NCBI GenBank assembly: GCA_024231215.1
Contig: JAAEQR010000072.1
Coordinates: 449,210 to 513,209 of the forward strand
Reading direction: 5' to 3'
Length of the DNA stretch: 64,000 bases
From: PVC group bacterium
GTDB taxonomy: Bacteria; Omnitrophota; Gorgyraeia; B26-G9
The position numbers and the translations under genes were made by a program. The notes under the pieces are model-generated. The model worked only from the letters and a program-made list of their open reading frames with translations, was not told the origin of the DNA and searched no databases. Each line of letters begins with the position of its first letter. Within the stretch, counting starts at the first letter, position 1. This document shows positions 6-22,125 of this stretch, piece after piece.

Positions 6-857
6 TTGAAAAAACATAGAGACAAAGGGTTGGTGTTTTTCAATCAAATTCAGCCTTGGAAAAAACAAAATGACGAATACTGTGGAGAAGGCTTGGAGTC
101 ACAGCCATATTTAGTGAATCTGATTAAGGATGGACTTGCCGGGGATGTGTTTTTTTACTATTTACCGCATGATCACGAACTTATGCAAGGTTTTACCGAA
201 ACAACGGGATATCCGTTACACACGGTGTTATTAGCGGCAAATAAAAAATTATTTTTTTATGAATATGATCAAAAGTATCAGGCAGATATTTCCTATGTCG
301 GAAGTTTGTTAAAAAATAAAAAGGTTTTTATTAAAGATCATCTCTTTCCTCTGATGAAAAAATATAAAGTAAAAGTATACGGCAGTGATTGGAACCTGGT
401 AAATAAATTGCAGGGATATATGCAAAAAGTCGGCCAATATTTTAATATTGAGCCATTAAAACATGTACGTAAAATAGATTTGCCGATTGAAGATGAAAGA
501 AAGGTTTATTCTTCTTCGCTGATTTCTTTAAATATTCATCTTGATGGGCAAAGAAAATTTGGCAGTGACTTTAATGAAAGAACATTTAAAATTATAGCCA
601 GCGGCGGGTTTGAGATATGTGATAATGTTGCTGTTTTGCGCAAGTATTTTAATGATCAGGAATTAGTAGTAGCAAATAATACCAAGGACTGGTTTGAAAA
701 AATAGATTTTTTTATAAAAAATCCTGATAAAAGAATTCCAATTATTGAAGCCGGGAAAAAGAAAATCTTGGCGGAGCATACTTATGAACATAGGGTGGCT
801 CAACTGATAGATATTTATAATACGATAAAACATGGAAATAAACCAACGTCAAATTGA
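6..857 (+). CDS. glycosyltransferase, CgeB-like group-1 C-terminal domain; reading frame is open to the window start, so probably 5'-truncated
   Basis: ORF has no in-frame stop back to base 3. C-terminal segment ...PIIEAGKKKILAEHTYEHRVAQLIDI matches the HTYxHR signature of CgeB/DUF3880-type glycosyltransferase C-terminal domains. Confidence 0.5.
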   Translation: MKKHRDKGLVFFNQIQPWKKQNDEYCGEGLESQPYLVNLIKDGLAGDVFFYYLPHDHELMQGFTETTGYPLHTVLLAANKKLFFYEYDQKYQADISYVGSLLKNKKVFIKDHLFPLMKKYKVKVYGSDWNLVNKLQGYMQKVGQYFNIEPLKHVRKIDLPIEDERKVYSSSLISLNIHLDGQRKFGSDFNERTFKIIASGGFEICDNVAVLRKYFNDQELVVANNTKDWFEKIDFFIKNPDKRIPIIEAGKKKILAEHTYEHRVAQLIDIYNTIKHGNKPTSN

Positions 858-2398
858 TAAATAATATGAAAAACAAAATTGTTCTTTTTTCTTCAGATTT
901 GCAATATGCCGGGGTGCCGATGGCATTATTAGCGGTTACGAAGCTGCTGGATAAAAAAGAAAATGATATTAAAATTATAACAAGCGCTGAATATCCCAAG
1001 TATAAGGAGGAGATTCTAGCTCAATGTGAAGGTGCTTTGTGTTTTGGGATAAGCTGTATAAGTGGTACTCCGATAAAATCAGCGATAGAAGTTTCCAAGA
1101 TGGTTAAGGAAAAATATCCATCATTGCCGATTATCTGGGGGGGATGGCAGGCGATTACCTTGCCGGATGTTACATTACAGGAGCCCTATGTTGATTATCT
1201 CTGTACTGGGCAGGGGGAGCGTACATTTTCTGAGTTTATTCGTATGCTGCGGGAAAATGATTTTGGTTCAATTGATAAGATAGACGGATTAAGTTATAAG
1301 AATAATGGGGTTATTACACACAATAACAGAAGAGTTCCTGAGGACTTGAATTCTTTTCCCGATTTTGATTTAGATCTGATCGAATGGGATAAATATCTGG
1401 AAGTTACAGATTTTGGAAATAATGTTTTGAGAATTGTAACAAGTTATGGGTGTCCTTATCGCTGCGGTTTCTGCTGTGAGCCTAACAATTCTAAACGACA
1501 ATGGAAATCTCTAACGGCAGAACGAATAATTTCTCTTCTGAAAAAAATCAGGTCTAAAGTTGATTTTGACGGCTTGATGATCGTGGAAAATAATTTTTTT
1601 GTCAGAGAACAGAGAGTTATAGATTTTTGCAATGGATTGATCGAGAATGGGTTTAATATAAAACTTGGGCAGGTCAACGGTAGGACAAATAAACTGGTTA
1701 CCTATAAAGAAAGTACCTGGGGATTACTCAAACAGGCAGGATTACATGATATTCTAATTGGGGCTGAGTCAGCGAATGAGGAGACATTACGGCTCATTAA
1801 TAAAGATGCAACGGTTGAGCAAACATATTTATTAAGTCGGATTTGCCGAAAATACGAGATAAAATTAATTGCCTCTATTATTGTCGGGCTTCCAATCCCG
1901 GCTTATTTTAGTGAGAATTCTCAAGATGCGTTTGATGTTGAATTTAGGGAGATAACTAAATTATACAAAGACCTCTTTCTCTTGGACAGAAATAATCGTT
2001 TGATTATATTTATTTATGCTCCTTTGCCGTTTTCTCCGATGTATGAGAGAGCTATTGAATTAGGTTTTCGTCCCCCGAAAAATCTTGAAGAATGGGGAAA
2101 TTATGATTTAACAGAGACACATATAGGTTGGATTTCTAAAAAGAATATTGTTAAAGTTCAAGCCTTAGTTTATGTTTCTTCGATGTTAGCTATAGATTTT
2201 AAGTATTTAGTGCAAAAGCTACCTATTATCTTGAGAGTATTTGTTATCCCGATGTTGGGCATTGCAAATTGGGTAAGTAAATTGCGTTTGCGATACGATT
2301 GTTATTCATTTCCGTTAGACAGCTATATGTTTTATGCGGCTTTGAAATTATTTAAGAGGTTAAATAAGACATATAAATTTATCAATATAACTAACTAA
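854..2398 (+). CDS. B12-binding domain / radical SAM protein (class B radical SAM family)
   Basis: N-terminal Rossmann-like B12-binding region (KIVLFSSDLQYAGVPMALLAVTKLL). Radical SAM cysteine triad CPYRCGFC (CxxxCxxC) at YGCPYRCGFCCEP. ATGA start/stop overlap with upstream gene. Confidence 0.75.
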   Translation: MINNMKNKIVLFSSDLQYAGVPMALLAVTKLLDKKENDIKIITSAEYPKYKEEILAQCEGALCFGISCISGTPIKSAIEVSKMVKEKYPSLPIIWGGWQAITLPDVTLQEPYVDYLCTGQGERTFSEFIRMLRENDFGSIDKIDGLSYKNNGVITHNNRRVPEDLNSFPDFDLDLIEWDKYLEVTDFGNNVLRIVTSYGCPYRCGFCCEPNNSKRQWKSLTAERIISLLKKIRSKVDFDGLMIVENNFFVREQRVIDFCNGLIENGFNIKLGQVNGRTNKLVTYKESTWGLLKQAGLHDILIGAESANEETLRLINKDATVEQTYLLSRICRKYEIKLIASIIVGLPIPAYFSENSQDAFDVEFREITKLYKDLFLLDRNNRLIIFIYAPLPFSPMYERAIELGFRPPKNLEEWGNYDLTETHIGWISKKNIVKVQALVYVSSMLAIDFKYLVQKLPIILRVFVIPMLGIANWVSKLRLRYDCYSFPLDSYMFYAALKLFKRLNKTYKFINITN

Positions 2399-2435: not shown

Positions 2436-5003
2436 GTGCGAAAAAAGGAGGGAATATTGTTTGCATTACAGAAAATTAAAAAAATAGATTTTATCCTGAT
2501 TGTTATTATTGTTTCAATGATCGTTATTGCTTATGGCAAAGTCATGGAAGCATCATTTCAGCAGGATGAATGGTATAGTCTGGCTAACTATCAGGTTACA
2601 AAAGATTTTTCTATAATGGAGACTATTCGGTACTTTACGCAAGGAGGGAATGTGTTCCCGCGGCCGCTAAGTTCATCTTTAAGCTTGATAAACTTTCGTT
2701 TATTTGGAATAAATTATGCTTTGTACTATGTTTGTTCTATTTTGACTCATATAGCTGTGAGCTTGTCTTTATATTATATTATTTTTGCTATGACCAAAAA
2801 GCGGGAACTTGCTTTCTTGACTGGGGTATTTTTTGCTATAAGTAGTACCGGTGCCCAGGCGATTACCTGGATAAGTGCCTATTTTGGGTCTGCTCAGTCT
2901 ACGTTTTTTGCTCTTTGGAGCCTGTTTTTTTACTTTAAATATCTTATTGGGGGGCAGGATAATAAGAAGCTGCAATATGCGGCAGTGGGATTGTTTTTAA
3001 TCGCAATATTATTTAAAGAGACTGTGGCTAATTTAATATTAATTTTCCCTTTCATGCACTTAATTCTTGCTAAGAAACGTGGATTGTTTGTTTTTTTAAA
3101 AGAACAGATTCCTTTATTAGTAACAATAGTTGGGTTTTTTCTGATTTTCTTTTCTCCTAGTTTTTTTAAAACTGCGGATAGTTCTATGGTGAGCCAAGCA
3201 GCTTCGGGGAGTAGTAATATAGCGGTATTATTATATCGTTCTGTTACTATTCCTTTTTCTGTTCTTGTTGATGTATATTTCCCTCCAGTATTCTTGTATA
3301 AGTGGAGTGCAATAATTACCCAGCTGGATCACCCATTTTTTTATTCTCAAAAAGGCACAAGTGTATATGATATTTTTATTGGATCAGCGGGGGCTAATCT
3401 AGTAACTTGCTATTTGCTATTAGGAATTTTATCATGTGTAGCGGGAGTATTGTCATATCTTAAAAAACACGATCAAAAGCTTTTTAATATTTTTTTAATT
3501 TTCTTTGGTTTTGTATTGACTGGCGGATTACCGCTTATTTTTGCGTATAGTGCTTCCTTTGCGGTTTTGGAATCAAGATATCTTTATTTGCCAGCAATTG
3601 GAGGAATGTTTATGCTGGCAGTAGCTGTAGATATTATGGGAAAGATGATTGGGAATTTATTTTCTGAAGATTGGAAGGAAACAGTCTATTATTGTTTGAT
3701 TGGTTTGCTTGCAATTGGTTTTTGTATTTTTAATATTCCAAAGATACGAGAGCCGATAAAAGAACTTGTGAGGATTTCTAAGGTGCGTAACTCTATTGTC
3801 GAAGGAATCGGTTCTAACTTGTCTCCTAAATCAAAAAGATTTTTTATTTATACTAAAAGCAATAGATCTTATTATGGGAAGGCTGAAACAATATTGCCAT
3901 TTCAGTGCGGAGCAGGGTATCTTTTGATGACAAGACATAGTATGAATAATGAAATGTTTATTCCGTTGTTGAAAGATAATCATTTATGGGATCTTACTAG
4001 TCAGGGAGTAGCTGAAGCTGACGGGATAGTTTTCGGATACTTCAGAGAATATCCTCTTTTTAAAAAAGCTATTTCAGAATATGAGGTAAAGGCTGAGGAA
4101 TTATATGCTTTTACTTGGGATGGGTATGCTGGGGAATTCGAAGATATTACTATCAGTGAGAGGCAACAGTTACAGGAAATCAAATACTATATAAATAAAG
4201 ATTTTGATAAAGATAGTTTGAAAATTGGTGTTCCAGATGGGAAGACTCGTCGTTTTTATTATGAAGGATTCATGTCTTCCCCGGTTGCAAAAATTGTTAA
4301 TCTTAAAAATGATAAAGAGTGGTTTTTTTGTGATTTTGCTAAAGGTGATGCTCGCAGACCTGAACCGAATACACAGGATTACTATTTAACCTATAAATAT
4401 GGGCTGGAAGATACTTATGGCGGAGCTTTAGTGGTCTATCATCTCTCAGGCAATGGGACAAATATTTATAGTATTCCCGGGGTAGTCTATGGTAAGCAGG
4501 TAGCTGGGTTGCATTATGCTCGAGCTTCGACTGGGGCTGTCCCGAAAAAGATTAGAAGAAAAAATGATGGAAGTATAGATATTGAGTTTGAAGCAACTTA
4601 TAATTCGGGGCAAGGGGTGCAGTTTGGAGCTTTACTTAATGAACCCGTTTTGTATTATATTCCCGGCAAAGGGGTCGAGGATATAGTTAAGGGGATGTAT
4701 GCAAAAGTTGAAGCTGACGGGAAGAAGAAGGCTTACGAGATAAGTTTGCCTGGGCAGCTGAAAACCTTGCGGTCATATTGGGAAAGTGATATATTAAGGT
4801 ATCAACCAAAGGCATTTATAGCCGGGAAAATGATACAAATTGTTAAATGGAGCGGATTAGAGACAAATACTTTGCGAATTGAATTTGCCCAGCCACCGGC
4901 AAAGGGAGCAGAAATTTTGGTTCCTTTGCTGGTTACTTATGCTCCTAAGCAAGAAGATGATAATATACTTATAATGAATTTTGCTGCTTGTGTTGCAAAA
5001 TAA
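2436..5003 (+). CDS. large polytopic membrane protein, putative GT-C-fold glycosyltransferase, with a C-terminal ~245-aa conserved soluble domain paralogous to the next gene
   Basis: About 11 predicted hydrophobic helices in the N-terminal 430 aa. D44-E45 (QQDEWYS, nt 2565-2570) immediately after TM1, as in the catalytic first loop of GT-C enzymes (ArnT/PMT-like). C-terminal domain (aa 598-845) is ~70% identical to aa 626-870 of the following ORF. Confidence 0.55.
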   Translation: MRKKEGILFALQKIKKIDFILIVIIVSMIVIAYGKVMEASFQQDEWYSLANYQVTKDFSIMETIRYFTQGGNVFPRPLSSSLSLINFRLFGINYALYYVCSILTHIAVSLSLYYIIFAMTKKRELAFLTGVFFAISSTGAQAITWISAYFGSAQSTFFALWSLFFYFKYLIGGQDNKKLQYAAVGLFLIAILFKETVANLILIFPFMHLILAKKRGLFVFLKEQIPLLVTIVGFFLIFFSPSFFKTADSSMVSQAASGSSNIAVLLYRSVTIPFSVLVDVYFPPVFLYKWSAIITQLDHPFFYSQKGTSVYDIFIGSAGANLVTCYLLLGILSCVAGVLSYLKKHDQKLFNIFLIFFGFVLTGGLPLIFAYSASFAVLESRYLYLPAIGGMFMLAVAVDIMGKMIGNLFSEDWKETVYYCLIGLLAIGFCIFNIPKIREPIKELVRISKVRNSIVEGIGSNLSPKSKRFFIYTKSNRSYYGKAETILPFQCGAGYLLMTRHSMNNEMFIPLLKDNHLWDLTSQGVAEADGIVFGYFREYPLFKKAISEYEVKAEELYAFTWDGYAGEFEDITISERQQLQEIKYYINKDFDKDSLKIGVPDGKTRRFYYEGFMSSPVAKIVNLKNDKEWFFCDFAKGDARRPEPNTQDYYLTYKYGLEDTYGGALVVYHLSGNGTNIYSIPGVVYGKQVAGLHYARASTGAVPKKIRRKNDGSIDIEFEATYNSGQGVQFGALLNEPVLYYIPGKGVEDIVKGMYAKVEADGKKKAYEISLPGQLKTLRSYWESDILRYQPKAFIAGKMIQIVKWSGLETNTLRIEFAQPPAKGAEILVPLLVTYAPKQEDDNILIMNFAACVAK
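4227..4965. repeat. copy A of a ~740-bp intergenic-distance duplication encoding a conserved soluble domain (paralogous to 6893-7628)
   Basis: Translated segments align colinearly: GVPDGKTRRFYYEGFMSSPVAK...QDYYLTYKYGLEDTYGG...HLSGNGTNIYS...LLNEPVLYYIPGKGV...LRSYW..DILRYQPKAFI...VTYAPKQED versus GIPDGESREFIKQGIMSCPVAK...QDYYLIYKYGFEDTYGG...VTYAPRQED. Confidence 0.8.
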
Positions 5004-5017
5004 AATACAAGGCTTAA

Positions 5018-8000
5018 ATGCGCAACGTAAAAAACTTTTTATATAGTACAATTATAATTTTAGTAGGAATTATTGCATGGCATAGGGTTCTGGATTTTGT
5101 TTTTTTTAAAGCTTATGAACCTGGCTGGCTGATGGCTCGTTACAATCCAAATTTGAGCTTTGACCAATTGCTGCTTAGCCTAATGCGGGCACATGCTTTT
5201 ATCTATTTTTTGTGTTATAAGGTTTTTGGATGGAATCCCATGGGGTGGTATGGGGTAAGTTTAGTTCTACATTTGTTAGCAGCATTGTTGATAGCGTATC
5301 TTACAGGATTTATTACTAAAAGTGAAAAGACCGGGTTTATTGCCGGTCTTTTTTTTGTTGCTAATGTTGCTTATAATGATGTGCTTACCTGGGGCAGTTT
5401 CAATGCATATTATGCTTTTATCATGTGTGCTTTTATTGCTGCTATTTTATTTTTTGGTTATTATCGTAAAACCAGCAATAGAGATTATTATTTGCTTTCT
5501 GTGGTGATGTTTTTTTTAGCCTTGGTTACCCGTGAAACAGCTTTACTTATTCCTATTTTTATTTTTCTTTTTGATATAATTATAATCCACCATTTGAAAG
5601 TGAAAGAGTTCTTTTTTCAGAATAAACGAAAACTGCTTGTATATATTCCATATTTTGTTTTGGCAGTTGCCTATCTTATATTTAGGGCCAAATTTATTTG
5701 CGGACTAAGTGGCGATAGTATGGATGGGCAGGTAAAGCTGGGGATGAAGCTAGTAGCGGAAAAGCAGTATATTTTATTCTTTAGCAGAGTTATGCTGGCT
5801 TTTGGACGTAATTTTGCGGCGCATATTGTGCCGTATGTGTTATTAAATAAATTACCCGCAATATTATATTCTTTGCTGGGTTGGGTGTTTTGGGGAAGTA
5901 TTGGACTTGTTGTCATTGCTGTTCGGAAAAATAAACAGCTTTTTACAGTTTTGTTCTTTGCTTTATTATGGATGAGCATTCAGACTCTTTTTATTTCACT
6001 GGCTATGCCGGCAACAGAGGAAATACTGGCGAGAAAGTATCTTTGGAATACCAGAAGATACAGTTATTATCCATTTTTTGGAGTGGTTTTATTTGGCAGT
6101 GTAATTATTGATCACATTGTTAATGTTATAGCAACAAAAAAGAAAATGTTTCACGGGCGATCGAATGTTCTTTTATGGACTATTGTCTGGGTGATTGTAG
6201 CGGGAAATATTTTAATGATCTGGAACGTTGAAGCTTTTGTGGCTAAGACTGTTTATGATCCGTCTAAAAAGTTTTTTAATGACCTTAAATCTTTTTATCC
6301 TATGCTTCCTGAAGGACTTGCTATTTACCAATATCCTAATGCTTCCGGGTTGTCAGATTTATTCTATGAATGGAATTGGACCAAGGAATTAAAGCATCCT
6401 AATCTTAAGGGGCAGCCTTTTCGCAGTGAAACGCAAATGGCCAGAATGTTTGAAAAAATAGAAAAAAAACAATTTTCTTTTGATGAAATATACTTTTTTG
6501 ATTATAACGATAAGGATGGATTAAGGGATTTTACAAAAGAAGCAAAACATTGGATTGAAAACTATCAAGAAGTAGAGATTTCTCTAAGTCGGGAGATTGA
6601 TTCCTATTTTGTGCTGCCAAAGAAGCGAGGAGCGATTAATATTATTCCGGAAGTAATAATTTCATTAAAAGATGAAAAGATAGCTCCTGTTGAATTTCCG
6701 TATTTTCTAGAAATAAAAATGAAAGCGACAATGATAAATGATCTAAAATTTCCTTTTTGCGTATCAGGAGACCGATTGTTACTGGAATCTGATATTTTGA
6801 AAAATGTTAATATATCTCGTGAAAATCGAGGCGCTATTAAACAATTACCATTGCATATAGGTCAGAGTGTACTGCCGAGTAGCTTACGGCTTGGCATTCC
6901 GGATGGGGAGTCCAGAGAGTTTATAAAACAGGGGATTATGAGTTGTCCGGTAGCAAAAGTAATGAATCAAAAGGATAACAGAGAATGGTTTTTTTGTGAT
7001 TTTGTTAAAGGGCAAGAGCGGATAGCTGAGCCCGGAACACAAGATTACTATTTAATATATAAATATGGGTTTGAAGATACTTATGGAGGGGCAGGGTTAG
7101 TATATCATTTATCCGGAAATGGCACTAATATATATAGTGTGCCCGGGACTATTTATGGTCACGAGGTAGCTGGTTTACAATATGCCAGAGCAGCAAACGG
7201 TGATTTGCCGAGGAAGATTACCCGTAAAGATGATGGGCAGATAGATATTGAATTTGCTTCTGTGTATAATGCGGGGCAGGGATTACAGTTTGGAGTTTTG
7301 TTGAATGAGCCGGTATTGTATTATATCCCTGGCAAAGGGGTGCAGGATATTGCCAAGGGCAAGTATGCAGAAATTAAAGCAGACGGTATAAGAAAAAGAT
7401 ATGAAATTGGTTTAAGCGGAGAGCTAAAAGCCTTGCGGTCATATTGGGGAAATGATATATTGAGGTATCAACCTAAGGCTTTTATCGATGGTAAGATGAC
7501 ACAAATTGTTAAATGGTGCGGATTAGGTACTAATACTCTTACAGTTGAATTTGCGCAACCGCCGCGCAGGGGAGCTAATATATTGATCCCTATGCTTGTA
7601 ACATATGCTCCGAGGCAAGAAGATAATATAATTATTACTTCTGAAGACAAACTGAAAAATAAATTGCATAAGAGTGAGATTGTAAATCCTGAAGTATTAC
7701 GTTCACTTACTATCTATGCTAAAGATAGAAAGGAATTTCTCGATAAAGCTGTTGTTTCTGTGAGCGGGACTCATGAACAATGGCCGGGTGAGCCGTTTTT
7801 GCATTTTTTACCGGACAATCTCATGGATGGGGATTTTGGAGATCGTTCTCAATGGATTTCAGAATCTAAGCCTTCCTGGATTGTTATAGATCAGGGGGAA
7901 TCAAAAAACGTCGGAGCTCTAATCTGGAAGGCAAAAGCTGGTTCGGGGAGAGTGCCCAGTACATATTCGTATTACAGTTCCAATGATGGTAAAGAATGGC

Positions 8001-8554
8001 GCTTTATTAAGAAGGAGAAAGGGAATAATCAAACAGAAAAGATTGATATTTTTCATCCTGCGATAAATGGGCGATATTTTAAAATGGAGATTGAAACAAC
8101 GTCAATGGGTGATTATGCAATGTTGCAGGAGCTTGAGCTTGTAGGAGAAGAAGCGAGTAAAATTTTCACCTACTACCAAATCAGGCAGGAACTTATACAT
8201 GATAGTAAACATTTCACTTCATATATAGGATCAAAAGATGAAATGGGAAACATGCTTTCTCTTGGACTCGATGGGGGATGGGCAAAGCTTTCCTGGCGGA
8301 CAAGAAGTGGTTGGGAAGAAGATTGTTTTATTGAGTTTCCTTATTATGTTGATGGCAAGTACCATGTTTATAGGTTAGATATTAAAGAAGGAGATGTCTA
8401 TGGTCGTCAGGGCGAGTTTTTGAAAAGAAAATTACATGAGCTGCGTCTTGATCTAGGGGAATTTCCGGCAAAATATGAGATAGAGTCGATTAAATTAATT
8501 CCAAAATATAATTTAAGGAGTAATAATGAAAATTCGAATTCCACAGTACGATAA
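5018..8554 (+). CDS. very large membrane protein (1178 aa): N-terminal polytopic domain (GT-C-like), central paralogous domain, C-terminal F5/8 type C (discoidin / CBM32-like) domain
   Basis: Multiple TM helices in the first ~400 aa. Central domain paralogous to the previous ORF. C-terminal region ...FLPDNLMDGDFGDRSQWISESKPSWIVIDQG...INGRYFKMEIETTS resembles the discoidin/F5-8 type C pattern (D-G-[DN]..T.W ... GRY.K). Confidence 0.55.
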   Translation: MRNVKNFLYSTIIILVGIIAWHRVLDFVFFKAYEPGWLMARYNPNLSFDQLLLSLMRAHAFIYFLCYKVFGWNPMGWYGVSLVLHLLAALLIAYLTGFITKSEKTGFIAGLFFVANVAYNDVLTWGSFNAYYAFIMCAFIAAILFFGYYRKTSNRDYYLLSVVMFFLALVTRETALLIPIFIFLFDIIIIHHLKVKEFFFQNKRKLLVYIPYFVLAVAYLIFRAKFICGLSGDSMDGQVKLGMKLVAEKQYILFFSRVMLAFGRNFAAHIVPYVLLNKLPAILYSLLGWVFWGSIGLVVIAVRKNKQLFTVLFFALLWMSIQTLFISLAMPATEEILARKYLWNTRRYSYYPFFGVVLFGSVIIDHIVNVIATKKKMFHGRSNVLLWTIVWVIVAGNILMIWNVEAFVAKTVYDPSKKFFNDLKSFYPMLPEGLAIYQYPNASGLSDLFYEWNWTKELKHPNLKGQPFRSETQMARMFEKIEKKQFSFDEIYFFDYNDKDGLRDFTKEAKHWIENYQEVEISLSREIDSYFVLPKKRGAINIIPEVIISLKDEKIAPVEFPYFLEIKMKATMINDLKFPFCVSGDRLLLESDILKNVNISRENRGAIKQLPLHIGQSVLPSSLRLGIPDGESREFIKQGIMSCPVAKVMNQKDNREWFFCDFVKGQERIAEPGTQDYYLIYKYGFEDTYGGAGLVYHLSGNGTNIYSVPGTIYGHEVAGLQYARAANGDLPRKITRKDDGQIDIEFASVYNAGQGLQFGVLLNEPVLYYIPGKGVQDIAKGKYAEIKADGIRKRYEIGLSGELKALRSYWGNDILRYQPKAFIDGKMTQIVKWCGLGTNTLTVEFAQPPRRGANILIPMLVTYAPRQEDNIIITSEDKLKNKLHKSEIVNPEVLRSLTIYAKDRKEFLDKAVVSVSGTHEQWPGEPFLHFLPDNLMDGDFGDRSQWISESKPSWIVIDQGESKNVGALIWKAKAGSGRVPSTYSYYSSNDGKEWRFIKKEKGNNQTEKIDIFHPAINGRYFKMEIETTSMGDYAMLQELELVGEEASKIFTYYQIRQELIHDSKHFTSYIGSKDEMGNMLSLGLDGGWAKLSWRTRSGWEEDCFIEFPYYVDGKYHVYRLDIKEGDVYGRQGEFLKRKLHELRLDLGEFPAKYEIESIKLIPKYNLRSNNENSNSTVR
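6893..7628. repeat. copy B of the duplicated ~740-bp domain-coding segment (paralogous to 4227-4965)
   Basis: See copy A; about 70% amino-acid identity over ~245 residues, same order and spacing of conserved blocks. Confidence 0.8.
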
Positions 8555-9185
8555 TATTAGAAAACTTAATTATAAATATCTCGATAGCACAGTAAAGCAA
8601 TATTATAAGCCGCTTGTGAGAGGGCCGATGATTAAGCGGTTGCAACTGGCACTTATGCTTATAGGTGATGAAAAAAAGAAACGGTTACTTGATGTGGGGT
8701 TTGGGGGCGGTACATTTTTCCCGGAATTGAGTACTCGTTGTGAAGAACTTTTTGGTATAGATGTTCATCCTGAGATTGAAACAGTTAAAAAGATGTTGGA
8801 AAAAGAAGATATAAAGGCGGATATTTCTAATGGAAGTATTTTGAATATAGCTCACCCCGATGGTTTTTTTGATTGTGTTGTTTGTATGAGTGTTTTAGAG
8901 CATTTAGAAGGAGAAACATTAAAAAATGCTGTTCGGGAGATGTCGAGGGTTCTAGCTGTGAATGGAAAATGTATAATTGGAGTTCCGGTTAAAAATAAGA
9001 TTTCAGATGCTATAATAGACAAAATACTTAAATTTAAGCCGGATGAAATTCATCCTACAAGCCATTCGATGGCTTTAGATGCTTTAACTGAGTGTTTTGA
9101 TCTAAAGGAAGAGGTTCATTATCCTTTTTTTATGCCTCTTGATTGGTCGCTGTATACGGTTTTTTCATTTATTAAAAAACGCTAA
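8526..9185 (+). CDS. class I SAM-dependent methyltransferase
   Basis: Motif I LLDVGFGGGTFFPEL (hh[DE]hGxGxG). Post-I acidic residue FGIDV. Motif II/III region DCVVCMSVLEHL. Start overlaps the end of the upstream giant ORF, so the true start may be further downstream. Confidence 0.65.
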   Translation: MKIRIPQYDNIRKLNYKYLDSTVKQYYKPLVRGPMIKRLQLALMLIGDEKKKRLLDVGFGGGTFFPELSTRCEELFGIDVHPEIETVKKMLEKEDIKADISNGSILNIAHPDGFFDCVVCMSVLEHLEGETLKNAVREMSRVLAVNGKCIIGVPVKNKISDAIIDKILKFKPDEIHPTSHSMALDALTECFDLKEEVHYPFFMPLDWSLYTVFSFIKKR

Positions 9186-9238: not shown

Positions 9239-9910
9239 ATGGGTGTAAGTATTATTATTCCAGCTAAAAATGAAGGTGAAGGAATTACTAGAATTTTAGA
9301 ATCTATAAAAGGTTATGCGAATGAAATTATAGTAGTTGATGGACATTCTCAGGATGGGACAAAAGAGAAAGTTGAAAAGTTTGGGGCAAAGTTTATTCTG
9401 GATAACAAAAAAGGCCGGGGTGATGCTGTTCGGGTAGCAATTAAAGCTGCCTCAGAGGATATAATTTTATTTTTCGATGCAGATGGATCTCACGATGATA
9501 AGGATGTTCTTAGTGTGTTAAAGCCATTGCAAGAAGGTAAAGCTGATATGGTAACCTGTTCTCGCCGTAAGGGTGGAAGTTTGGATATTAAAATGGATTT
9601 TCCCGGATTTATTCGGATGGTGGGTTGCGATATGCTTGCGATGCTTATTAATCTTCGTTGGAAATCAGATCTTTCGGATGTTCTGTATAGTTTTCGGGCT
9701 ATAAAGCGAGAGGTTATTCTAGATTTGAATTTAAAAGCTGACAAATTCTATATTGAGCAGGAAATGATTGTTAAAGCCCTCAAAAAGAAATATAAAATTA
9801 TTGAAATACCTAGCCGTGAGTTTGCTCGGGGGTGGGGGAACTCGAAATTATCTACATTTGAAGGGATTGAATTTTTCTTGCATTTTATTCGGGAAGCTTT
9901 ATTACCGTAA
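9239..9910 (+). CDS. family-2 glycosyltransferase, polyprenyl-phosphate sugar synthase type (DPM1/ArnC/GtrB-like)
   Basis: VSIIIPAKNEGEGI ... IIVVDGHSQDGT ... ILFFDADGSHD (DxD) is the classic small GT2 architecture of dolichyl/undecaprenyl-phosphate sugar transferases. AGGAG-type RBS upstream. Confidence 0.75.
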   Translation: MGVSIIIPAKNEGEGITRILESIKGYANEIIVVDGHSQDGTKEKVEKFGAKFILDNKKGRGDAVRVAIKAASEDIILFFDADGSHDDKDVLSVLKPLQEGKADMVTCSRRKGGSLDIKMDFPGFIRMVGCDMLAMLINLRWKSDLSDVLYSFRAIKREVILDLNLKADKFYIEQEMIVKALKKKYKIIEIPSREFARGWGNSKLSTFEGIEFFLHFIREALLP

Positions 9911-9971: not shown

Positions 9972-12449
9972 TTGTTACCTTTGAGCACAAGAGAGTTGCC
10001 GGATAAGAGAAAAAAAATATCTTTTCTTCTTCTTATTGTTGTGATTTTATTCTGCATTCCTTTTTTTTGGAGTAGTCCTAATCACTATAACCTGGGCGGG
10101 GATGATTCGCGTTTGTATTTATATTCTCCGTATGAGTGGCTGCATAATGTAGCATTGTATTCATGGTTTGATATTTCCGGGATATCTTCGTATAACCCCC
10201 AGCAATTTTCCTTTCCTTTTGTCATATTGCTTGCTTTGTTGCAGAAGATATTTTTCTTTCTTAATATCCAAAAATTAGCTTGGGGGCTAACTCTTTCTTT
10301 TGGATTTTTTTCTATATATTTGTTTATCGAAGAATTATTGCAGGATAAAAATAATCTGAATTCTACTATTTCAGCTGCAATCGGAGGGTTGCTCTATGTT
10401 TTCTTCCCGTTAATATTTTATATAGATTGGCCTCAGCCGCTGTACAATCTATATGCTATTGCGGTGTTTCCATCATTTCTCTGGTTTTTTCTAAAGGCAG
10501 TGAATAATGCAGATGTGAGGTATTTGTTAGGTGGTGCAGTAGTAAGCGCGTTATTTAGTCTGGTGATTGTGAATTTCCCGTGGTTTTTACCTTTTGCAAT
10601 TGGAGCTTTTATTTTTCTTGTGTTGTATTGTTTTTTAATTGAAGAAAATAAAGGTAGGCTAGGCTTTTATTTGCTTTTATATGTTTTGTTTTCGATATTA
10701 TTCAATCTTTTTTGGATAATCCCATTGTTGCATTCTATTCTTTTTGGGGGATTTGCCAGCGAAGCTACTGTAGGCGGTGGAGTTAAAGAAGCTGCATTAA
10801 ATGTTATTCATAGTGTGGCACCGTCGATGAATATTTTTGATACGCTTTGCGGATTATTGAGCAGAGAATTGATTTTTGGTTGGAACTGGCCACAGAAAGT
10901 AATTGCGAAGTACACATTCAACTTTTCCGCTTTTAGCGCGTTGCTTCCAGGGGTTATCTTTTTGTCACTGCTAATCAGGCAAGGGAAGGTAAGAACTAAA
11001 AAATTACTGGTAATTTTTAGTTTAATAACAGTAATCCTGGCTTATTTGCAGACTGTTAATATCGGGGGATGGGGAGTTAAATTATTTGATTGGTTAATAT
11101 ATACTGTTCCTTGGTGGACAATGTTGAGGAATTTCTTTAGTAAAGTACCTATTGCCTATGGCATCTTTTTCTCAATTACAATAGGTATAGCTGTTTTTCA
11201 CGTATTAGAACGGATTAATAAGCAAAAAATAAAGAGAATATTTGTTGCCGGACTTATAGTTGTTATTTTAGTTCAGGCTTTGCCCTTTATTTTTGGAAGG
11301 GTTAATGCTCTGCCTGTCTATAATGCGGATATTCCTTTGAACCGAAATATTATTGTGCCGGACTATTATCGAGAGACTACAGAGTATATCAAAAAATTAA
11401 GGGTAGGGCGAGTGTTGACCCTTCCGATGACGTTTGCGACATGGTCAATTTTTAAAAGCTCTTGTGGGAAAGGCTTATATGTGGGGAGTTCTCCGATAAA
11501 AGTTTTTACGGGTAAGGACGATTTTAATGGGAAGATGGGTTTTGAAAGAATCTCGGGTCTGCCGGAGCTGATTATTGATGCTTATCAGAAAGATGCTAAT
11601 GTATTAGGTTATGTTTTTGGAAAATTAGGTGTTCGCTATATGCTTTATAATACGCAGATGGAGAAATTACCGGAGGTTTTAAAGACAGGATGGTTGTGGG
11701 AATACGAAACACTTTCAAATAATAAAAGCATAAAGTCAATTTTAAGTAGTGTGGCAAATGAAAGGTTGGCTGTTTTTGGGCCTTTAGAAATATATAAGAT
11801 CAATGATGAGTTTTTTCTACCGCATATTTATCCTGCTAAAAAGGCAAGTGTAGTAAAAGGAGATATAAGTGCTTTAATGTCTTTATCTGAGGGTATTGAC
11901 TTGGATAAATCAGATGTTTTATTTTTTGAGAAAAACGAAACGACTAAGGGCAAAGGGATATTCTCGGATGAGGGGAGAATAGAAGGAGGTAATAATCCTG
12001 AAATAGTTTTTAAGAAAATAAACCCCACAAAATTTAGCGTAGAAATCAAAAATGCCAAACATCCTTTCTGGCTGGTATTTAATGAAAGGTTTCATGAAGA
12101 CTGGAATATTTATAAAACACAAATATCCGATGCAAATACTCTTAGAAATGATGAGTTATCCAGTTATTCTCAATTTGGGGTAAAAGAATCAGAATACCGG
12201 CTGCAATTTGCCCCGCAGGATTTTAAATTCCTTTTTTTAAAACCAATGGATTTGCAGCATAAGGTTGCTAATGCTTATGCGAACGCATGGTATATAGAGC
12301 CTGAAAACTTTGAGAAAAGTAATAATTTTTCTTTTGTCATATACTTTTTGCCGCAAAGCTTTTTTTATTTAGGATTACTAATTTCTGTTTTTTCGATGCT
12401 TTTGTCGGTGATTTTCATGATTGTTTATAGTATTAAAAGGAGAAGCTAG
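9972..12449 (+). CDS. large polytopic membrane protein, putative GT-C-fold glycosyltransferase (825 aa), TTG start
   Basis: RBS AGGAG at 9961-9965, TTG at 9972. About 12 hydrophobic helices. D44-D45 (GGDDSRLY, nt 10101-10106) directly after TM1, as in Emb/Aft-type GT-C enzymes. Large C-terminal soluble region with a final C-terminal TM helix. Confidence 0.5.
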   Translation: MLPLSTRELPDKRKKISFLLLIVVILFCIPFFWSSPNHYNLGGDDSRLYLYSPYEWLHNVALYSWFDISGISSYNPQQFSFPFVILLALLQKIFFFLNIQKLAWGLTLSFGFFSIYLFIEELLQDKNNLNSTISAAIGGLLYVFFPLIFYIDWPQPLYNLYAIAVFPSFLWFFLKAVNNADVRYLLGGAVVSALFSLVIVNFPWFLPFAIGAFIFLVLYCFLIEENKGRLGFYLLLYVLFSILFNLFWIIPLLHSILFGGFASEATVGGGVKEAALNVIHSVAPSMNIFDTLCGLLSRELIFGWNWPQKVIAKYTFNFSAFSALLPGVIFLSLLIRQGKVRTKKLLVIFSLITVILAYLQTVNIGGWGVKLFDWLIYTVPWWTMLRNFFSKVPIAYGIFFSITIGIAVFHVLERINKQKIKRIFVAGLIVVILVQALPFIFGRVNALPVYNADIPLNRNIIVPDYYRETTEYIKKLRVGRVLTLPMTFATWSIFKSSCGKGLYVGSSPIKVFTGKDDFNGKMGFERISGLPELIIDAYQKDANVLGYVFGKLGVRYMLYNTQMEKLPEVLKTGWLWEYETLSNNKSIKSILSSVANERLAVFGPLEIYKINDEFFLPHIYPAKKASVVKGDISALMSLSEGIDLDKSDVLFFEKNETTKGKGIFSDEGRIEGGNNPEIVFKKINPTKFSVEIKNAKHPFWLVFNERFHEDWNIYKTQISDANTLRNDELSSYSQFGVKESEYRLQFAPQDFKFLFLKPMDLQHKVANAYANAWYIEPENFEKSNNFSFVIYFLPQSFFYLGLLISVFSMLLSVIFMIVYSIKRRS

Positions 12450-13474
12450 TGATAAACTTTAAAAAGATAAGAGATAAACAGTTAGCGTTTTTAATTTCAC
12501 TGATTATTGTTCTTTCTTGTTTTTTGATTGCAGATACTAATTTAGCGAAAAAAGTTGTTAGTGTGGAACGGGAATATCCGGTTAATTCCGAATCGCTGTT
12601 GAAGAAAATACCGTTGCCGATTAAAAGTGATTATGTGGTGAAAATCAAGTATCAGTCTAGAAAGATGATGGGGGCGATGGTTTGGTTAAATCAATATCCA
12701 TTAGAAATGAGGGCGTCTAACGTATCAAATAAATTGAATGTTACATGTTATTATTATGCACCGAAAGACAAAGTAATGCTTGGGGATAATGTTTTCGAAA
12801 TTAAGTTCCACGGAGAACATCCATCAACAGTAACGGTGCGTATGAATAACTACGTTGCAGCAGTAGCAGATAATAATATTATTATTTCACTAGCAAACTC
12901 TGTTTTTAAAAATAAGGCTTGGGTTAAACTTTTCTTTTTTGGGATTATTTTGTTTGGTTGTGTTTTTTGGGTATGGCGGTTTCTGGTTTTTATGGGTATG
13001 GTTCTTTTTCATGAATCATTTCAGAGAAGTACTTTTAACACAGCACTTTCTTTTTCCCCCTGCACGTTATTATTTTTTATTCTTTCGATTAAGTCTTATC
13101 AAGGTCCATATTTGATTGCGATAAGTCCGGGGTATCTTTTATTATTATTTGTTCTTTTAACAGGGTTTACTAACGCTGTTTTAAATCTTATCCATGTATT
13201 AATCTTGAGGAAAGTATTTCCGTCGATTAAGCGTGAGTATATTCTGCCGACAGCTCGGGTGGAGATTCCCCCCTGGCTTATAGGGGGCGGAAAGTGGTTT
13301 AAGAAAAGGAGTTTAGCTGATAAATGCATAATATTCTGTTTATTTGTTTTTAGTTGTTCTGTTTTTCTTTTTATGCTGGGGGTGTCGAAATGGGGAGAGC
13401 CCCTTGCTAACGTAGCATATACCAGCGTACTTATAGGTATTTCCATGAAATTATTTAGCTTAACTAAGAAATAA
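12449..13474 (+). CDS. membrane protein of unknown function
   Basis: ATGA-type coupling to the upstream gene. N-terminal TM helix, ~130-aa soluble segment, then several TM helices. Confidence 0.5.
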   Translation: MINFKKIRDKQLAFLISLIIVLSCFLIADTNLAKKVVSVEREYPVNSESLLKKIPLPIKSDYVVKIKYQSRKMMGAMVWLNQYPLEMRASNVSNKLNVTCYYYAPKDKVMLGDNVFEIKFHGEHPSTVTVRMNNYVAAVADNNIIISLANSVFKNKAWVKLFFFGIILFGCVFWVWRFLVFMGMVLFHESFQRSTFNTALSFSPCTLLFFILSIKSYQGPYLIAISPGYLLLLFVLLTGFTNAVLNLIHVLILRKVFPSIKREYILPTARVEIPPWLIGGGKWFKKRSLADKCIIFCLFVFSCSVFLFMLGVSKWGEPLANVAYTSVLIGISMKLFSLTKK

Positions 13475-13481
13475 TAATCTT

Positions 13482-20036: not shown

Positions 20037-20277
20037 AGGGTAAAAAATACATAATTTAACCTTTTTACTGAAAAGGCAAACCTCATGTGAGTGGGGGGCG
20101 TTCCGAAGAGTGGCTAGATATCGGGATCCCGAGAGCAATAAACCGTCATTATTTATAAGGTTATATCGGGGCAAAGCTGCGGGTCTAAAAGAGATATTTA
20201 GATAGCCGGGTTACCGAAAAGGAAGAGTGAGTAGCAAGCCACTAGAAGTCTGTGTAAAAGGTGGCTTGTTTTTTTTT
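20037..20277 (+). ncRNA. structured RNA (~240 nt) with c-di-GMP-I (GEMM) riboswitch-like sequence blocks, ending in an intrinsic terminator
   Basis: GGCAAACC (20074-20081), CGGGGCAAAGCUGCGGGUCUAAA (20167-20189) and GCCGGGUUACCGAAAAGG (20204-20221) resemble, from memory, the conserved blocks of the Vibrio cholerae Vc2 aptamer (GGCAAACC / CGCAAAGCC..CGG.CUAAA / GCGGGGUUACCGAUGG). The 5' half deviates: no clear GNRA-capped P2 and extra inserted hairpins. Confidence 0.4.
20236..20277 (+). terminator. rho-independent terminator (AAGCCAC ... GUGGCUU + U9)
   Basis: 7-bp GC-containing stem closing an 18-nt loop, followed by GTTTTTTTTT. Confidence 0.6.
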
Positions 20278-21042: not shown

Positions 21043-22125
21043 ATGCGGATAATTGCTATTGCTAATCAAAAAGGAGGATGCGGTAAAACAACAACAGCCA
21101 TAAATTTCTCTGCGTGTTTAGCTCAGGCAAAAAAGAATGTTTTGTTGATAGATTTGGATCCCCAGGGACATGCGACTTTAGGCTTAAATATAAAACATCA
21201 GGATGTGGATAAGAGCATGTATCATGTTTTGACACCGCAATCCGGTAAAAAAGTCAGACTGGACGAAATTATTTTACCTATTTCTCAGAATTTTGATCTA
21301 GCACCGGCGGATATTCTTTTGTCTGCGATTGAACAAGAACTTTCCGGTAAACCGGAACGGGAAGCTAAGCTGTATCAGGCAATTTCACTTATGGTAACAA
21401 AAAAAACCTATGATTATATTGTTATTGATTGTCCTCCTAGTTTGGGGCTTTTAACTTTTAATGCTTTGCGTGTTTCTGGGGAAGTTATTGCGCCTGTAGA
21501 GACCGGGTTTTTCTCTGTGCATGGGGTAAGTAAACTTTTAGAAATAGTAGATGTGATTGGAAAACGTTTAAAATGTGATATTGCTGTTAAAGCATTAATC
21601 ACATTATTTGATCGTCGCACTAAATTTTCTCAGGAAATAAAAGATGATATTTACAATCATTTTTCCGGACAGGTATTTAAATCTATAATTAATACAAATG
21701 TGCGATTAAAAGAAGCGGCAAGTTATGGTATGCCGGTTATTGCCTATGATAAGCGTTGTCGGGGTTCAGAAGATTATATGGCCTTGGCTAAAGAGGTAAT
21801 ACGTAAATATGATTGGACTAAACCAGAAACAGTGACGGAAACTGTTGGCGGGCCGCAACAAAGCAAAAGTGGAATATTGTTTACATATAGTTCTACCGAA
21901 GCAGGTTCTGTACAGATTGCAGGAGATTTTAATAACTGGGCAGCAGACCAAAAAGATAAATTAGAAACTACAAAAAAGGGTGTTTGGGCTAAAGTTTATA
22001 ATTTGAGGCCGGGGCGCTATCGTTATAAGTTTATTGTTGACGGACAATGGGTTACAGATCCTAATAATCCACAGACAGAAGCTGATGAAATTGGGAACTT
22101 AAATTCTTTACTAGAAATAAAGTGA
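21043..22125 (+). CDS. ParA/MinD-family deviant Walker-A ATPase fused to a C-terminal AMPK-beta / CBM48-type glycogen-binding domain
   Basis: IIAIANQKGGCGKTTTAINFSACLA (KGGxGKT deviant Walker A with signature Lys). ParA-like DLDPQG and VIDCPPS blocks. C-terminal ~85 aa FTYSSTEAGSVQIAGDFNNW...KGVWAKVYNLRPGRYRYKFIVDGQWVTDPNNP fit the AMPK-beta GBD/CBM48 pattern. GGGGAGG RBS. Confidence 0.75.
   Translation: MRIIAIANQKGGCGKTTTAINFSACLAQAKKNVLLIDLDPQGHATLGLNIKHQDVDKSMYHVLTPQSGKKVRLDEIILPISQNFDLAPADILLSAIEQELSGKPEREAKLYQAISLMVTKKTYDYIVIDCPPSLGLLTFNALRVSGEVIAPVETGFFSVHGVSKLLEIVDVIGKRLKCDIAVKALITLFDRRTKFSQEIKDDIYNHFSGQVFKSIINTNVRLKEAASYGMPVIAYDKRCRGSEDYMALAKEVIRKYDWTKPETVTETVGGPQQSKSGILFTYSSTEAGSVQIAGDFNNWAADQKDKLETTKKGVWAKVYNLRPGRYRYKFIVDGQWVTDPNNPQTEADEIGNLNSLLEIK

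Follow-up and report, generated by a model that had tools for sequence, protein, structure and literature searches.

Two large membrane proteins encoded by adjacent genes, here termed ORF A and ORF B, share a soluble segment that is far more similar between them than the remaining parts of their sequences, which raises the question of how this segment came to be present in both proteins and which role it plays there. Both genes are located in the window, a stretch of 64,000 nucleotides from contig JAAEQR010000072.1 of a PVC group bacterium (Omnitrophota). The features of the locus are compiled in Table 1.

Table 1. Features of the locus encoding ORF A and ORF B, in order of position within the window
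Feature	Position	Strand	Basis or remark
B12-binding radical SAM gene	854..2398	+	Directly upstream of A; same arrangement beside the A homologue P0001
ORF A, 855 aa	2436..5003	+	Family alignments A4 and A6; AF2 model; Foldseek
A residues 1-440, multi-helix transmembrane module	2436..3755	+	Hydropathy, model helices
A residues 441-580, alpha/beta mid domain	3756..4175	+	Motif conservation in the A family
Shared module, copy 1 (A594-846)	4215..4973	+	BLASTP/BLASTN, AF2 domain model
ORF B, 1178 aa, MCP4649296.1 'hypothetical protein'	5018..8554	+	B-family homologues, NCBI annotation
B residues 1-600, membrane module and mid domain of the B-family type	5018..6817	+	Alignment A5
B residues ~601-895, insertion including short junction linkers	6818..7702	+	Single clean gap in A5
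Shared module, copy 2 (B622-873)	6881..7636	+	69-70% identity with copy 1
B residues 931-1038, F5/8 type C (discoidin, CBM32-like) domain	7808..8131	+	Pfam and PDB matches
B residues 1039-1178, C-terminal region shared by B-family members, not assigned to any known family	8132..8551	+	Alignment A5
Class I methyltransferase, 219 aa, first gene of the cassette downstream of B-family genes	8526..9185	+	
Small GT2 glycosyltransferase, 223 aa, second cassette gene	9239..9910	+	PF00535 1.3e-24

BLASTP of ORF A against ORF B shows 65% identity over 277 aa (A570-846 versus B598-873, E 2e-125). The well-aligned stretch of this region, A594-846 versus B622-873, reaches 69 to 70% identity, in agreement with the ~70% that the earlier note had claimed for the shared domain. 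At the DNA level, the two copies (4266-4972 versus 6933-7635) are 74.3% identical over 712 bp and show a start-to-start spacing of 2666 bp; no third copy of the domain was found in the window by tblastn. The membrane regions of A and B are indeed far more diverged, as had been proposed, with 25 to 27% identity over 80 to 243 aa and a dN of 0.87, compared to 0.205 for the domain. Between the membrane part and the domain, A and B show no BLAST similarity.

The earlier note named recent duplication, gene conversion or strong constraint as possible reasons for this conservation; insertion of a domain was not among its explanations. Strong constraint is borne out by an omega of ~0.14 for the domain. 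Recent duplication and gene conversion do not agree with the synonymous sites, which show a pS of 0.65 and a dS of ~1.5, and with a codon identity only modestly above saturation: at identical residues, the same codon is used in 97 cases, compared to 77.5 expected at saturation (z = 3.3). It is thus very improbable that the two copies go back to a recent segmental duplication, to ongoing gene conversion or to an assembly artefact. The modest excess in shared codons would fit such an origin, as would a DNA identity of 74%, slightly above the expectation for 70% protein identity, and a 30-codon window (A776-805) with 87% nucleotide identity and a pS of 0.41. Against it stand the synonymous divergence of the domain, with a pS hardly different from the 0.68 of the membrane parts, a third-position identity of only 54% between the copies, two 3-nt indels and the lack of long identical tracts in the DNA alignment, where the longest gap-free block comprises 300 nt at 72% identity. 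An artefact is further opposed by the intact reading frames of both copies and by the NCBI annotation of B as a single protein. On the basis of dS, these origins are ruled out as the main explanation, and a short, old conversion tract around A776-805 is possible.

In ORF A, the GT-C-fold membrane module is followed by a mid domain of the alpha/beta type, and the all-beta domain forms the C-terminus. An identical database entry was not found for the A sequence, probably owing to a different start codon in the annotation. Hydropathy analysis shows 10 to 11 hydrophobic segments in the N-terminal module, and the AF2 model of A, with moderate confidence over the full length (pLDDT 77.8, pTM 0.63), contains ~13 long helices in residues 15-461. 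In a Foldseek search of this model against the PDB, the top 15 matches are all GT-C enzymes (STT3, DPY19, PglB, ArnT and Pmt4), with a probability of 1.0, E values of 1e-4 to 6e-3 and TM-scores of 0.3 to 0.48, the upper value referring to the target; EmbB at rank 18, AftD at rank 39 and also Pmt1/2 are found among the further matches. The model matches STT3, PglB, ArnT, DPY19, Pmt4, EmbB and AftD through its membrane module. Two motifs of this module, FQQDEW (D44, E45 and W46) after the first helix and ESRYxYxP (R381 and Y382) in a later loop, are conserved in the alignment A6, where D44 and Y382 never vary and E45, W46 and R381 hardly do. In the first loop of B-family proteins, the Asp is replaced, with E34 and W37 as invariant residues. 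An acidic motif after helix 1 (DE in A-family and E in B-family proteins), a loop with a conserved Arg-Tyr motif and the predicted fold are features in common with the GT-C enzymes of the PMT/ArnT type (PMT_2, PF13231). In contrast to these likenesses, the Pfam and NCBIfam models of GT-C enzymes match neither A nor B even at E <= 10, and a precomputed PMT_2 match is present in one B-family member only, P0036. The fold prediction supports a classification of A and B as GT-C-type, glycosyltransferase-like membrane proteins, with B linked to A via the hhalign comparison described below.

Helix counting, the positive-inside pattern and the analogy with GT-C enzymes would place the shared domain outside the cytoplasm, after the last transmembrane helix. 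A soluble domain in this position is likewise found in GT-C enzymes with accessory domains, such as EmbA/B/C and AftD with their CBMs, PglB/STT3 with the periplasmic domain and TMTC with its TPR, and the genes of these enzymes are likewise part of a surface-glycan locus. The analogy to the C-terminal domains of the Emb/Aft enzymes drawn in the earlier note is architecturally reasonable because of the GT-C host protein, the placement of the domain after the last helix on the GT-C accessory side and the constraint on it. The accessory domains of Emb, AftD, PglB/STT3 and TMTC differ from the shared domain in that they show no sequence or fold similarity to it.

By sequence comparison, ORF A is assigned as an ordinary member of a small family, here called the A family. 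Its membrane module scores 96 to 147 bits against P0007, P0014, P0001 and P0002, compared to only 28 to 45 bits against B. The mid domain matches every member of the A family (E 1e-7 to 1e-19), with the motifs SIFY..SN..YYG, LPFQ.GFG, GFGYFRDY and NVYAFRWD kept throughout; B is not matched by BLAST in this region, and a remote profile match connects the mid domain of A with the mid region of the B family. For the C-terminal domain, B is the best match with 382 bits, and P0001 follows with 264 bits. At their loci, the genes of the A family are accompanied by those of radical SAM enzymes, methyltransferases and GT2 enzymes, and the C-terminus of these GT-C-fold proteins is the native position of the module.

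The shared segment is an all-beta module of ~250 residues, comprising a linker and a core of ~200 residues, and represents a rare, unclassified family. In copy 1, a low-confidence linker or pre-domain (~594-643) precedes the all-beta core (~644-846). The AF2 model of the domain shows ~18 strands with high confidence (pLDDT 90.5, pTM 0.87). As the earlier note had stated, the domain belongs to no recognisable family: no match was obtained in Pfam, NCBIfam and PHROGs, lenient thresholds included, or in sequence searches of the PDB with the single sequence and with a 20-sequence profile. The 20 domain sequences show no consistent Pfam match at E <= 5, and Foldseek of the domain model against the PDB gives no fold match with E <= 1e-3. 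An identity as a standard CBM was rejected, as neither sequence nor fold shows a CBM match. A discoidin identity was likewise dismissed, with no PF00754 match in the shared domain; B is matched by this model further downstream, at residues 931-1038.

Relatives of the domain are few. Among 1.84 billion cluster representatives, 19 matches were found, 18 of which are genuine; the remaining match, P0006, is spurious and contains FN3-like repeats that match ~30 profile positions. Scans of genome contigs and viral contigs contained no relatives, and a word-indexed protein search gave none with the domain of A and only the fragment P0020 with the 20-sequence profile. This profile scores A with 5e-88 and B with 1e-88, both of which are training members. 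Sequences independent of the profile are residues 750-984 of Bacillus phage G gp211 with an E value of 1.7e-34 and a tandem paralogue in L003 with 7e-23. The family is characterized by the motifs Y.GG..L.Y...GNGT..Y.IP, DG, (Y)I(D/N)G and PP..G..I.(I/V)P(V/L)L..Y.P, and conservation throughout its members is limited to Gly, Pro and aromatic positions. The polar/aromatic motifs LRSYW..D.LRYQPKAF and LLNEPVLYYIPGKGV are kept in A, B, P0001 and P0020.

ORF B is placed by its homologues in a family of discoidin-domain membrane proteins, here called the B family, which is remotely related to the A family. The 17 homologues of B come from other organisms and show E values of 1e-150 to 1e-58 and identities of 32 to 47%, which extend over the membrane, mid, discoidin and C-terminal parts. 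Fourteen of them are full length, all with 805 to 885 aa and all with an F5/8 type C domain; a representative is P0027 (GCA_038063575.1), annotated as 'discoidin domain-containing protein [Patescibacteria group bacterium]'. Besides E34 and W37, the residue pairs R172-E173 and R347-Y348 are invariant in the B-family alignment A5. The discoidin domain of B (PF00754 at 8.7e-13, also PF22633) is native to this family, whose profile matches CBM32 and neuropilin structures in the PDB. The shared domain is missing in all eight homologues aligned with B, leaving one clean gap of ~290 residues (B ~601-895), so that among these proteins the module is found only in B. The cassette of a B-family gene, a methyltransferase and a small GT2 is syntenic in L006 and L007, and the downstream pair is common to the genes of the Patescibacteria proteins and B. 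The small GT2, named 'glycosyltransferase' by NCBI in the window, is conserved with 223 to 227 aa as the second gene after those of the B family. It is a putative polyprenyl-phosphate-sugar synthase and as such would supply the donor. With RmlA, ManC, methyltransferases and B12 radical SAM enzymes, the locus points to methylated deoxy-sugars. A further large membrane ORF, at 9972, shows no relationship to B.

The relationship of the two families was determined by hhalign with profiles of the A and the B family, from which ORF B had been omitted in both alignments. Only the membrane and mid parts align, over 449 columns with a probability of 99.8% and an E value of 3.5e-28. In the tree of the domain, A and B form a pair in 200/200 bootstraps, nested in a group of A, B, L009, P0001 and P0020 in 199/200. 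Since the copy of B is nested in the A family and the eight aligned homologues of B are devoid of the domain, B acquired an A-type module by insertion. In this lineage, the C-terminal module of an A-type protein was copied into B, where the mid domain precedes it and the discoidin domain follows. The near saturation of the synonymous sites shows that the event is old, and purifying selection has since kept both copies.

A tandem duplication of the whole gene, in which the membrane and mid parts of B diverged fast around a constrained C-terminal domain and no insertion took place, is hardly credible. The adjacent location of A and B on the same strand and the remote homology of their membrane and mid modules would be consistent with it. 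This scenario is opposed by the 32 to 47% identity of B to 17 foreign proteins, of which the eight aligned are without the domain, by the synteny of the methyltransferase and GT2 cassette with the B homologues, by the nesting of B's copy beside A within the A family, and by the membrane module of A, to which each further member of the A family is more similar than B. Alignment of the B family, synteny and the domain tree rule out such a duplication with asymmetric divergence; this exclusion is possible only because a separate B family lacks the domain, and the identity values would not suffice for it.

Because conservation in the whole family is confined to Gly, Pro and aromatic positions, the module is probably non-catalytic. 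Its most likely role is the binding of the acceptor, or of some other ligand at the cell surface, on the outer side of the membrane. The module would hold a surface polymer or glycoprotein near the active site of the GT-C enzyme, A and B would act on the same product of the glycosylation locus, and B would have gained the module to address the same target. Taken as a whole, a rare beta module that is native to A-type proteins, was inserted into B and probably serves in the binding of an acceptor or surface ligand is the best explanation of the locus and is considered reasonably probable.

GT-C enzymes are known to form complexes, as in the case of Pmt1-Pmt2 and EmbA-EmbB, and the module could accordingly be a site of protein-protein contact, with the copies of A and B pairing or docking on a common partner and the transferases working as a complex; in phages, the same domain would be an oligomerising element of a shaft. 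Such a role is judged unlikely. It is in line with the maintenance of ~70% identical copies in adjacent genes, apparently of one operon, with the action of several of the solved GT-C fold matches as dimers or heterocomplexes (in part general knowledge), with the position of the domain in the middle of the phage relatives instead of the tip, and with a family-wide conservation that is structural and not polar. However, the remaining A-family members identified here possess the domain without a B-type partner nearby, and pairing of A and B is therefore not its original role.

It is distinctly improbable that the module is a passive beta-sandwich spacer of the Ig/FN3 type, which has no ligand of its own and keeps other parts of the protein, for example B's discoidin domain, at a distance from the membrane. 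The all-beta structure of ~18 strands, the restriction of family-wide conservation to Gly, Pro and aromatic positions, the cross-match of the last ~30 profile positions with the FN3-like repeats of P0006 and the location in B, flanked by the mid domain and the CBM32 domain, are compatible with a spacer. In the A family, however, the domain is terminal and nothing lies beyond it to be spaced, and the long polar/aromatic motifs together with the omega of 0.14 indicate more constraint than is usual for a spacer.

In addition to membrane proteins, the domain is found in viruses. Six of the 18 genuine relatives show a soluble architecture of the jumbo-phage type, in which the domain occupies an internal, middle position in large proteins. 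Phage G gp211 and the related jumbo-phage proteins contain a true homologue of the core domain, with ~21 to 27% identity to the copies of the window. They differ from the A family in the absence of a membrane module and in the internal position of the domain, which is C-terminal in the A family. A ConA-like lectin domain precedes the domain in some phage proteins, and a Laminin_G_3 domain is present in gp211 and weakly in P0015. P0010 matches gp211 over 89% of its own length, and a protein annotated as a tail fibre is matched by the N-terminal third of P0010. With weak PHROG matches and this one annotated homologue of an N-terminal part, the phage relatives look like tail proteins. The link to phages derives from profile searches only, as 50,697 phage genomes searched by tblastn with the domain from the window contained no match. 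The best viral fold matches of the domain are weak (TM-score 0.2 to 0.43) and come from a library that is rich in beta-rich tail proteins anyway. It is a rather unlikely prospect that the module could be a new receptor-binding fold exchanged between the tails of jumbo phages and GT-C enzymes of the host surface. After such an exchange, phage and bacterial copies would have one kind of envelope polymer in common, recognised by the former and held as an enzyme substrate by the latter.

The finding is incremental in that GT-C accessory domains and domain insertion are both well known. It adds a new and very rare domain, with 18 representatives and a confidently predicted all-beta structure that has no solved equivalent in Foldseek. 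The locus also provides a clean case of domain shuffling, as donor and recipient adjoin each other, both parental architectures survive elsewhere, and the direction and relative age of the shuffling can be read from the sequences. Orphan proteins of jumbo phages gain a first cross-reference. GT-C enzymes from uncultured lineages have hardly been characterised, and an accessory domain shared by two of them within one locus offers a practical route to their common acceptor. The homologues in jumbo phages, including gp211, suggest a link between the synthesis of envelope glycans and phage adsorption; if the exchange described above took place, the specificity of surface-glycan synthesis would be tied directly to the recognition of hosts by phages in uncultured bacteria with small cells.

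The adjoining genes of A and B, two glycosyltransferase-like membrane proteins, share a segment of ~250 residues, a domain that is native to the C-terminus of the GT-C family of A and was copied into B, a member of a second family. The segments A594-846 and B622-873 are 69.4-69.6% identical, and BLASTP gives 65% identity (E 2e-125) over A570-846 and B598-873. The DNA of the copies shows 74.3% identity over 712 bp at a spacing of 2666 bp, and tblastn finds no third copy within the window. The N-terminal membrane regions of A and B align weakly, with 25-27% identity, and the segments linking the membrane part to the domain show no similarity by BLAST. An earlier note on this DNA had described a duplicated soluble domain of ~245 aa and ~70% identity in two adjacent proteins with far more diverged membrane domains; its coordinates, its identity estimate and the contrast with the membrane parts all agree with these measurements. 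Each copy also contains a short internal repeat encoding Y(N/I)xGxGV(Q/E), i.e., YNSGQGVQ and YIPGKGVE, which may represent two similar hairpins or chance.

Coordinates of features in the window
Feature	Position	Strand	Remarks
B12-binding radical SAM gene	854-2398		directly upstream of A
ORF A	2436..5003	+	855 aa
Domain DNA, copy 1	4266-4972		in A
Internal repeat, copy 1	4598-4622, 4655-4679		57 nt apart
Least diverged stretch, copy 1	~4761-4850		A776-805
ORF B	5018..8554	+	1178 aa; MCP4649296.1, NCBI name 'hypothetical protein'
(Y/F/W)E(A/P)xW motif	5018-5140		B residues 27-38
Domain DNA, copy 2	6933-7635		in B
Internal repeat, copy 2	7264-7288, 7321-7345		57 nt apart
Least diverged stretch, copy 2	~7427-7516		
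F5/8 type C (discoidin) domain			B residues 931-1038
Large ORF	9972-12449	+	825 aa
Large ORF	12449-13474	+	341 aa
Large ORF	13482-15941	+	819 aa
c-di-GMP-I riboswitch aptamer	20149-20218	+	Rfam RF01051
ParA/MinD-type ATPase-CBM48 fusion	21043-22125	+	
GH57 branching enzyme	25877		

A codon alignment of A and B (Nei-Gojobori method) gives pS values of 0.65 for the domain and 0.68 for the membrane part, dS values of about 1.5 and 1.76, dN values of 0.205 and 0.87, and omega values of 0.14 and about 0.5, respectively. Where the domains have the same amino acid, the codon is identical 97 times compared to 77.5 expected from the codon usage of the locus (z = 3.3); z is 1.5 in the remaining parts of the proteins. 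The pS and dS values and the codon counts indicate that synonymous sites are near saturation, and the copies are therefore old, their similarity being held by purifying selection. The earlier note had offered recent duplication, gene conversion or strong constraint and had proposed the comparison of dN/dS between domain and membrane part; the low omega of the domain favors constraint, and the near-saturated synonymous sites contradict a recent duplication as well as recent or ongoing conversion. The least diverged stretch of 30 codons shows 87% nucleotide identity with a pS of 0.41, compared to 0.65 overall, and could stem from an old conversion over a short tract or from local constraint.

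The domain folds independently as an all-beta module. The AF2 model of A619-855 (pLDDT 90.5, pTM 0.87) is all-beta with ~18 strands, and an alignment of 20 sequences shows a core of ~200 residues with the motifs Y.GG..L.Y...GNGT..Y.IP..(I/L)YG, a DG turn, (Y)I(D/N)G, and PP..G..I.(I/V)P(V/L)L..Y.P. The columns kept in at least 90% of these sequences are glycines, and the alignment contains no family-wide conserved polar residue of the active-site type. No member of the domain family has a consistent Pfam match, and neither PHROGs nor the PDB sequences searched with the domain profile give a match, in line with the earlier note, which could assign the domain to no known family. The Foldseek comparison that it suggested returns nothing from the PDB at E <= 1e-3, with TM-scores of <= 0.26. 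When 1.84 billion cluster representatives were searched exhaustively with HMMER, a profile of the two copies picked out only 19 proteins at E <= 1e-3, of which 18 are genuine; P0006 is a spurious repeat match. The domain family is unclassified and very rare, and its predicted structure has no solved equivalent in the PDB. GT-C enzymes with accessory domains are already known, as is the shuffling of domains.

For A and B alike, the membrane families of Pfam and NCBIfam give no match at a threshold as lenient as E <= 10. Eight relatives of ~790-960 aa (P0001, P0002, P0004, P0005, P0007, P0009, P0014, and P0017) share the full-length architecture of A, in which an N-terminal multihelix module is followed by a conserved mid domain and the C-terminal beta domain; a further member from metagenome contig L009 (833 aa) is 35% identical to A across its full length. 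The membrane module contains FQQDEW right behind the first helix, with D44 invariant and E45 nearly invariant, and ESRYxYxP in a later loop; the mid domain is marked by SIFY..SN..YYG, LPFQ.GFG, GFGYFRDY, and NVYAFRWD. The best 15 PDB matches of the full-length AF2 model from the family alignment (pLDDT 77.8, pTM 0.63) are all GT-C proteins (STT3, DPY19, PglB, ArnT, and Pmt4; Foldseek probability 1.0, E 1e-4 to 6e-3), with EmbB, Pmt1/Pmt2, and AftD lower in the list. Because of these matches, A is predicted to have the GT-C fold, and it carries the acidic motif expected of such proteins. The helix count of the model and the short Lys/Arg-rich loops point to an N-in, C-out topology with ~13 helices, which, by analogy with known GT-C enzymes, would place the mid and beta domains outside the cytoplasm.

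B belongs to a different family of discoidin-domain membrane proteins. With B residues 1-621 as the query, the strong homologues number 17, at E 1e-150 to 1e-58; 14 of these are full length (805-885 aa), and all 14 carry an F5/8 type C domain. One is named 'discoidin domain-containing protein [Patescibacteria group bacterium]' by NCBI, which labels the present MAG, whose contig with the window measures 708,307 bp, 'PVC group bacterium'; another also contains PMT_2. At the position of the A-family Asp-Glu of FQQDEW, the B family shows (Y/F/W)E(A/P)xW, with only E34 and W37 invariant. B and eight homologues are colinear throughout except for a single clean gap of ~290 columns at B ~601-895, which corresponds to the A-type module plus short junction linkers. 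A profile-profile comparison of the families, with B left out of both alignments, gives a match over 449 columns (probability 99.8%, E 3.5e-28) that spans the membrane and mid parts only, and the A-type C-terminal domain has no B-family counterpart. Segment-wise BLAST likewise shows incongruent relationships: the membrane module of A scores 96-147 bits with P0007, P0014, P0001, and P0002 compared to 28-45 bits with B, its mid domain matches every A-family member and not B, and its C-terminal domain reaches 382 bits with B compared to 264 bits with the best A-family match (P0001). A duplication of the whole gene with asymmetric divergence is contradicted by these data. In a neighbor-joining tree of the core domain, A and B pair in 200/200 bootstraps and are nested within a group with L009, P0001, and the relative P0020 in 199/200. 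This nesting shows that the domain was copied from an A-type into a B-type gene after the lineage of A had parted from that of P0001 and L009. The insertion probably took place with A and B as neighbors, as they are in this genome.

Homologues of the domain also occur in phage proteins. Among the 18 genuine relatives, six (P0010, P0011, P0012, P0015, P0016, and P0019) are soluble, measure 938-1156 aa, and carry the domain in mid-protein. P0010 and gp211 of Bacillus phage G align across 89% of P0010 (E 5e-21), and the N-terminal third of P0010 is similar to an annotated tail fiber protein of a 309-kb phage. Residues 750-984 of gp211, which lies outside the training alignment, match the domain profile (E 1.7e-34), and residues 482-594 form a ConA-like Laminin_G_3 domain. 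The phage-like contig of P0010 (L003) encodes a neighboring 965-aa ORF that also carries the domain (E 7e-23; genes 10001-12817 and 12863-15760), and phage genomes therefore also hold the domain as tandem paralogues. Other genes on this contig are one resembling homing endonucleases, one with a weak match to DUF4815, and one for a Laminin_G_3 protein, besides several ORFs of ~900 aa. Against BFVD, the domain model gives two matches at E <= 1e-3; the list, which includes gp211 and a DUF4815 protein, consists mostly of tail-fiber, tailspike, and minor-tail proteins at weak TM-scores of 0.2-0.43. The family is thus shared by GT-C proteins from uncultured bacteria and by large proteins of jumbo phages that resemble tail components, for which 'tail' is a tentative label.

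The window begins with a glycosylation locus of 20 kb. Its genes encode a GT1-like protein, a B12 radical SAM protein, A, B, a methyltransferase, a GT2, more large membrane proteins, another methyltransferase, an epimerase, RfbA, and ManC. The three large ORFs of this locus have no family match except DUF3108 at the C-terminus of the 819-aa ORF, and the 825-aa ORF is unrelated to B. B homologues in L006 and L007 share the downstream cassette of a methyltransferase (~220 aa) and a GT2 (~227 aa), with no A-type gene upstream. A-family homologues are found in similar loci, alongside genes of the radical SAM, methyltransferase, and GT2 types; the B12-binding radical SAM gene also lies directly upstream of the A-type gene of P0001 (L001, 8458-9867) and ~5 kb upstream in L009. 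This suggests a functional link, e.g., in sugar or acceptor methylation. Just downstream of the locus, the riboswitch aptamer (36.4 bits; gathering score, 35) is followed by a gap of ~800 bp and the ParA-like gene, whose product is fused to a CBM48/AMPK1_CBM domain of the glycogen-binding type. Next come genes related to glycogen, including a DUF4912 gene with a glucodextranase-B-like domain and the GH57 gene. Nearly all genes of the window are on the plus strand; the GC content is 0.33-0.41, and the GC skew is strongly positive over the whole length.

The structural and evolutionary account as a whole is held with high confidence. The role of the domain is more tentative: it would lie outside the cytoplasm, be noncatalytic, and bind the acceptor or another envelope component, and A and B would thereby act on one common product of the locus. 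This specific binding role is the leading reading, though held with less than even confidence; the rival readings are a module that forms complexes and a passive spacer.
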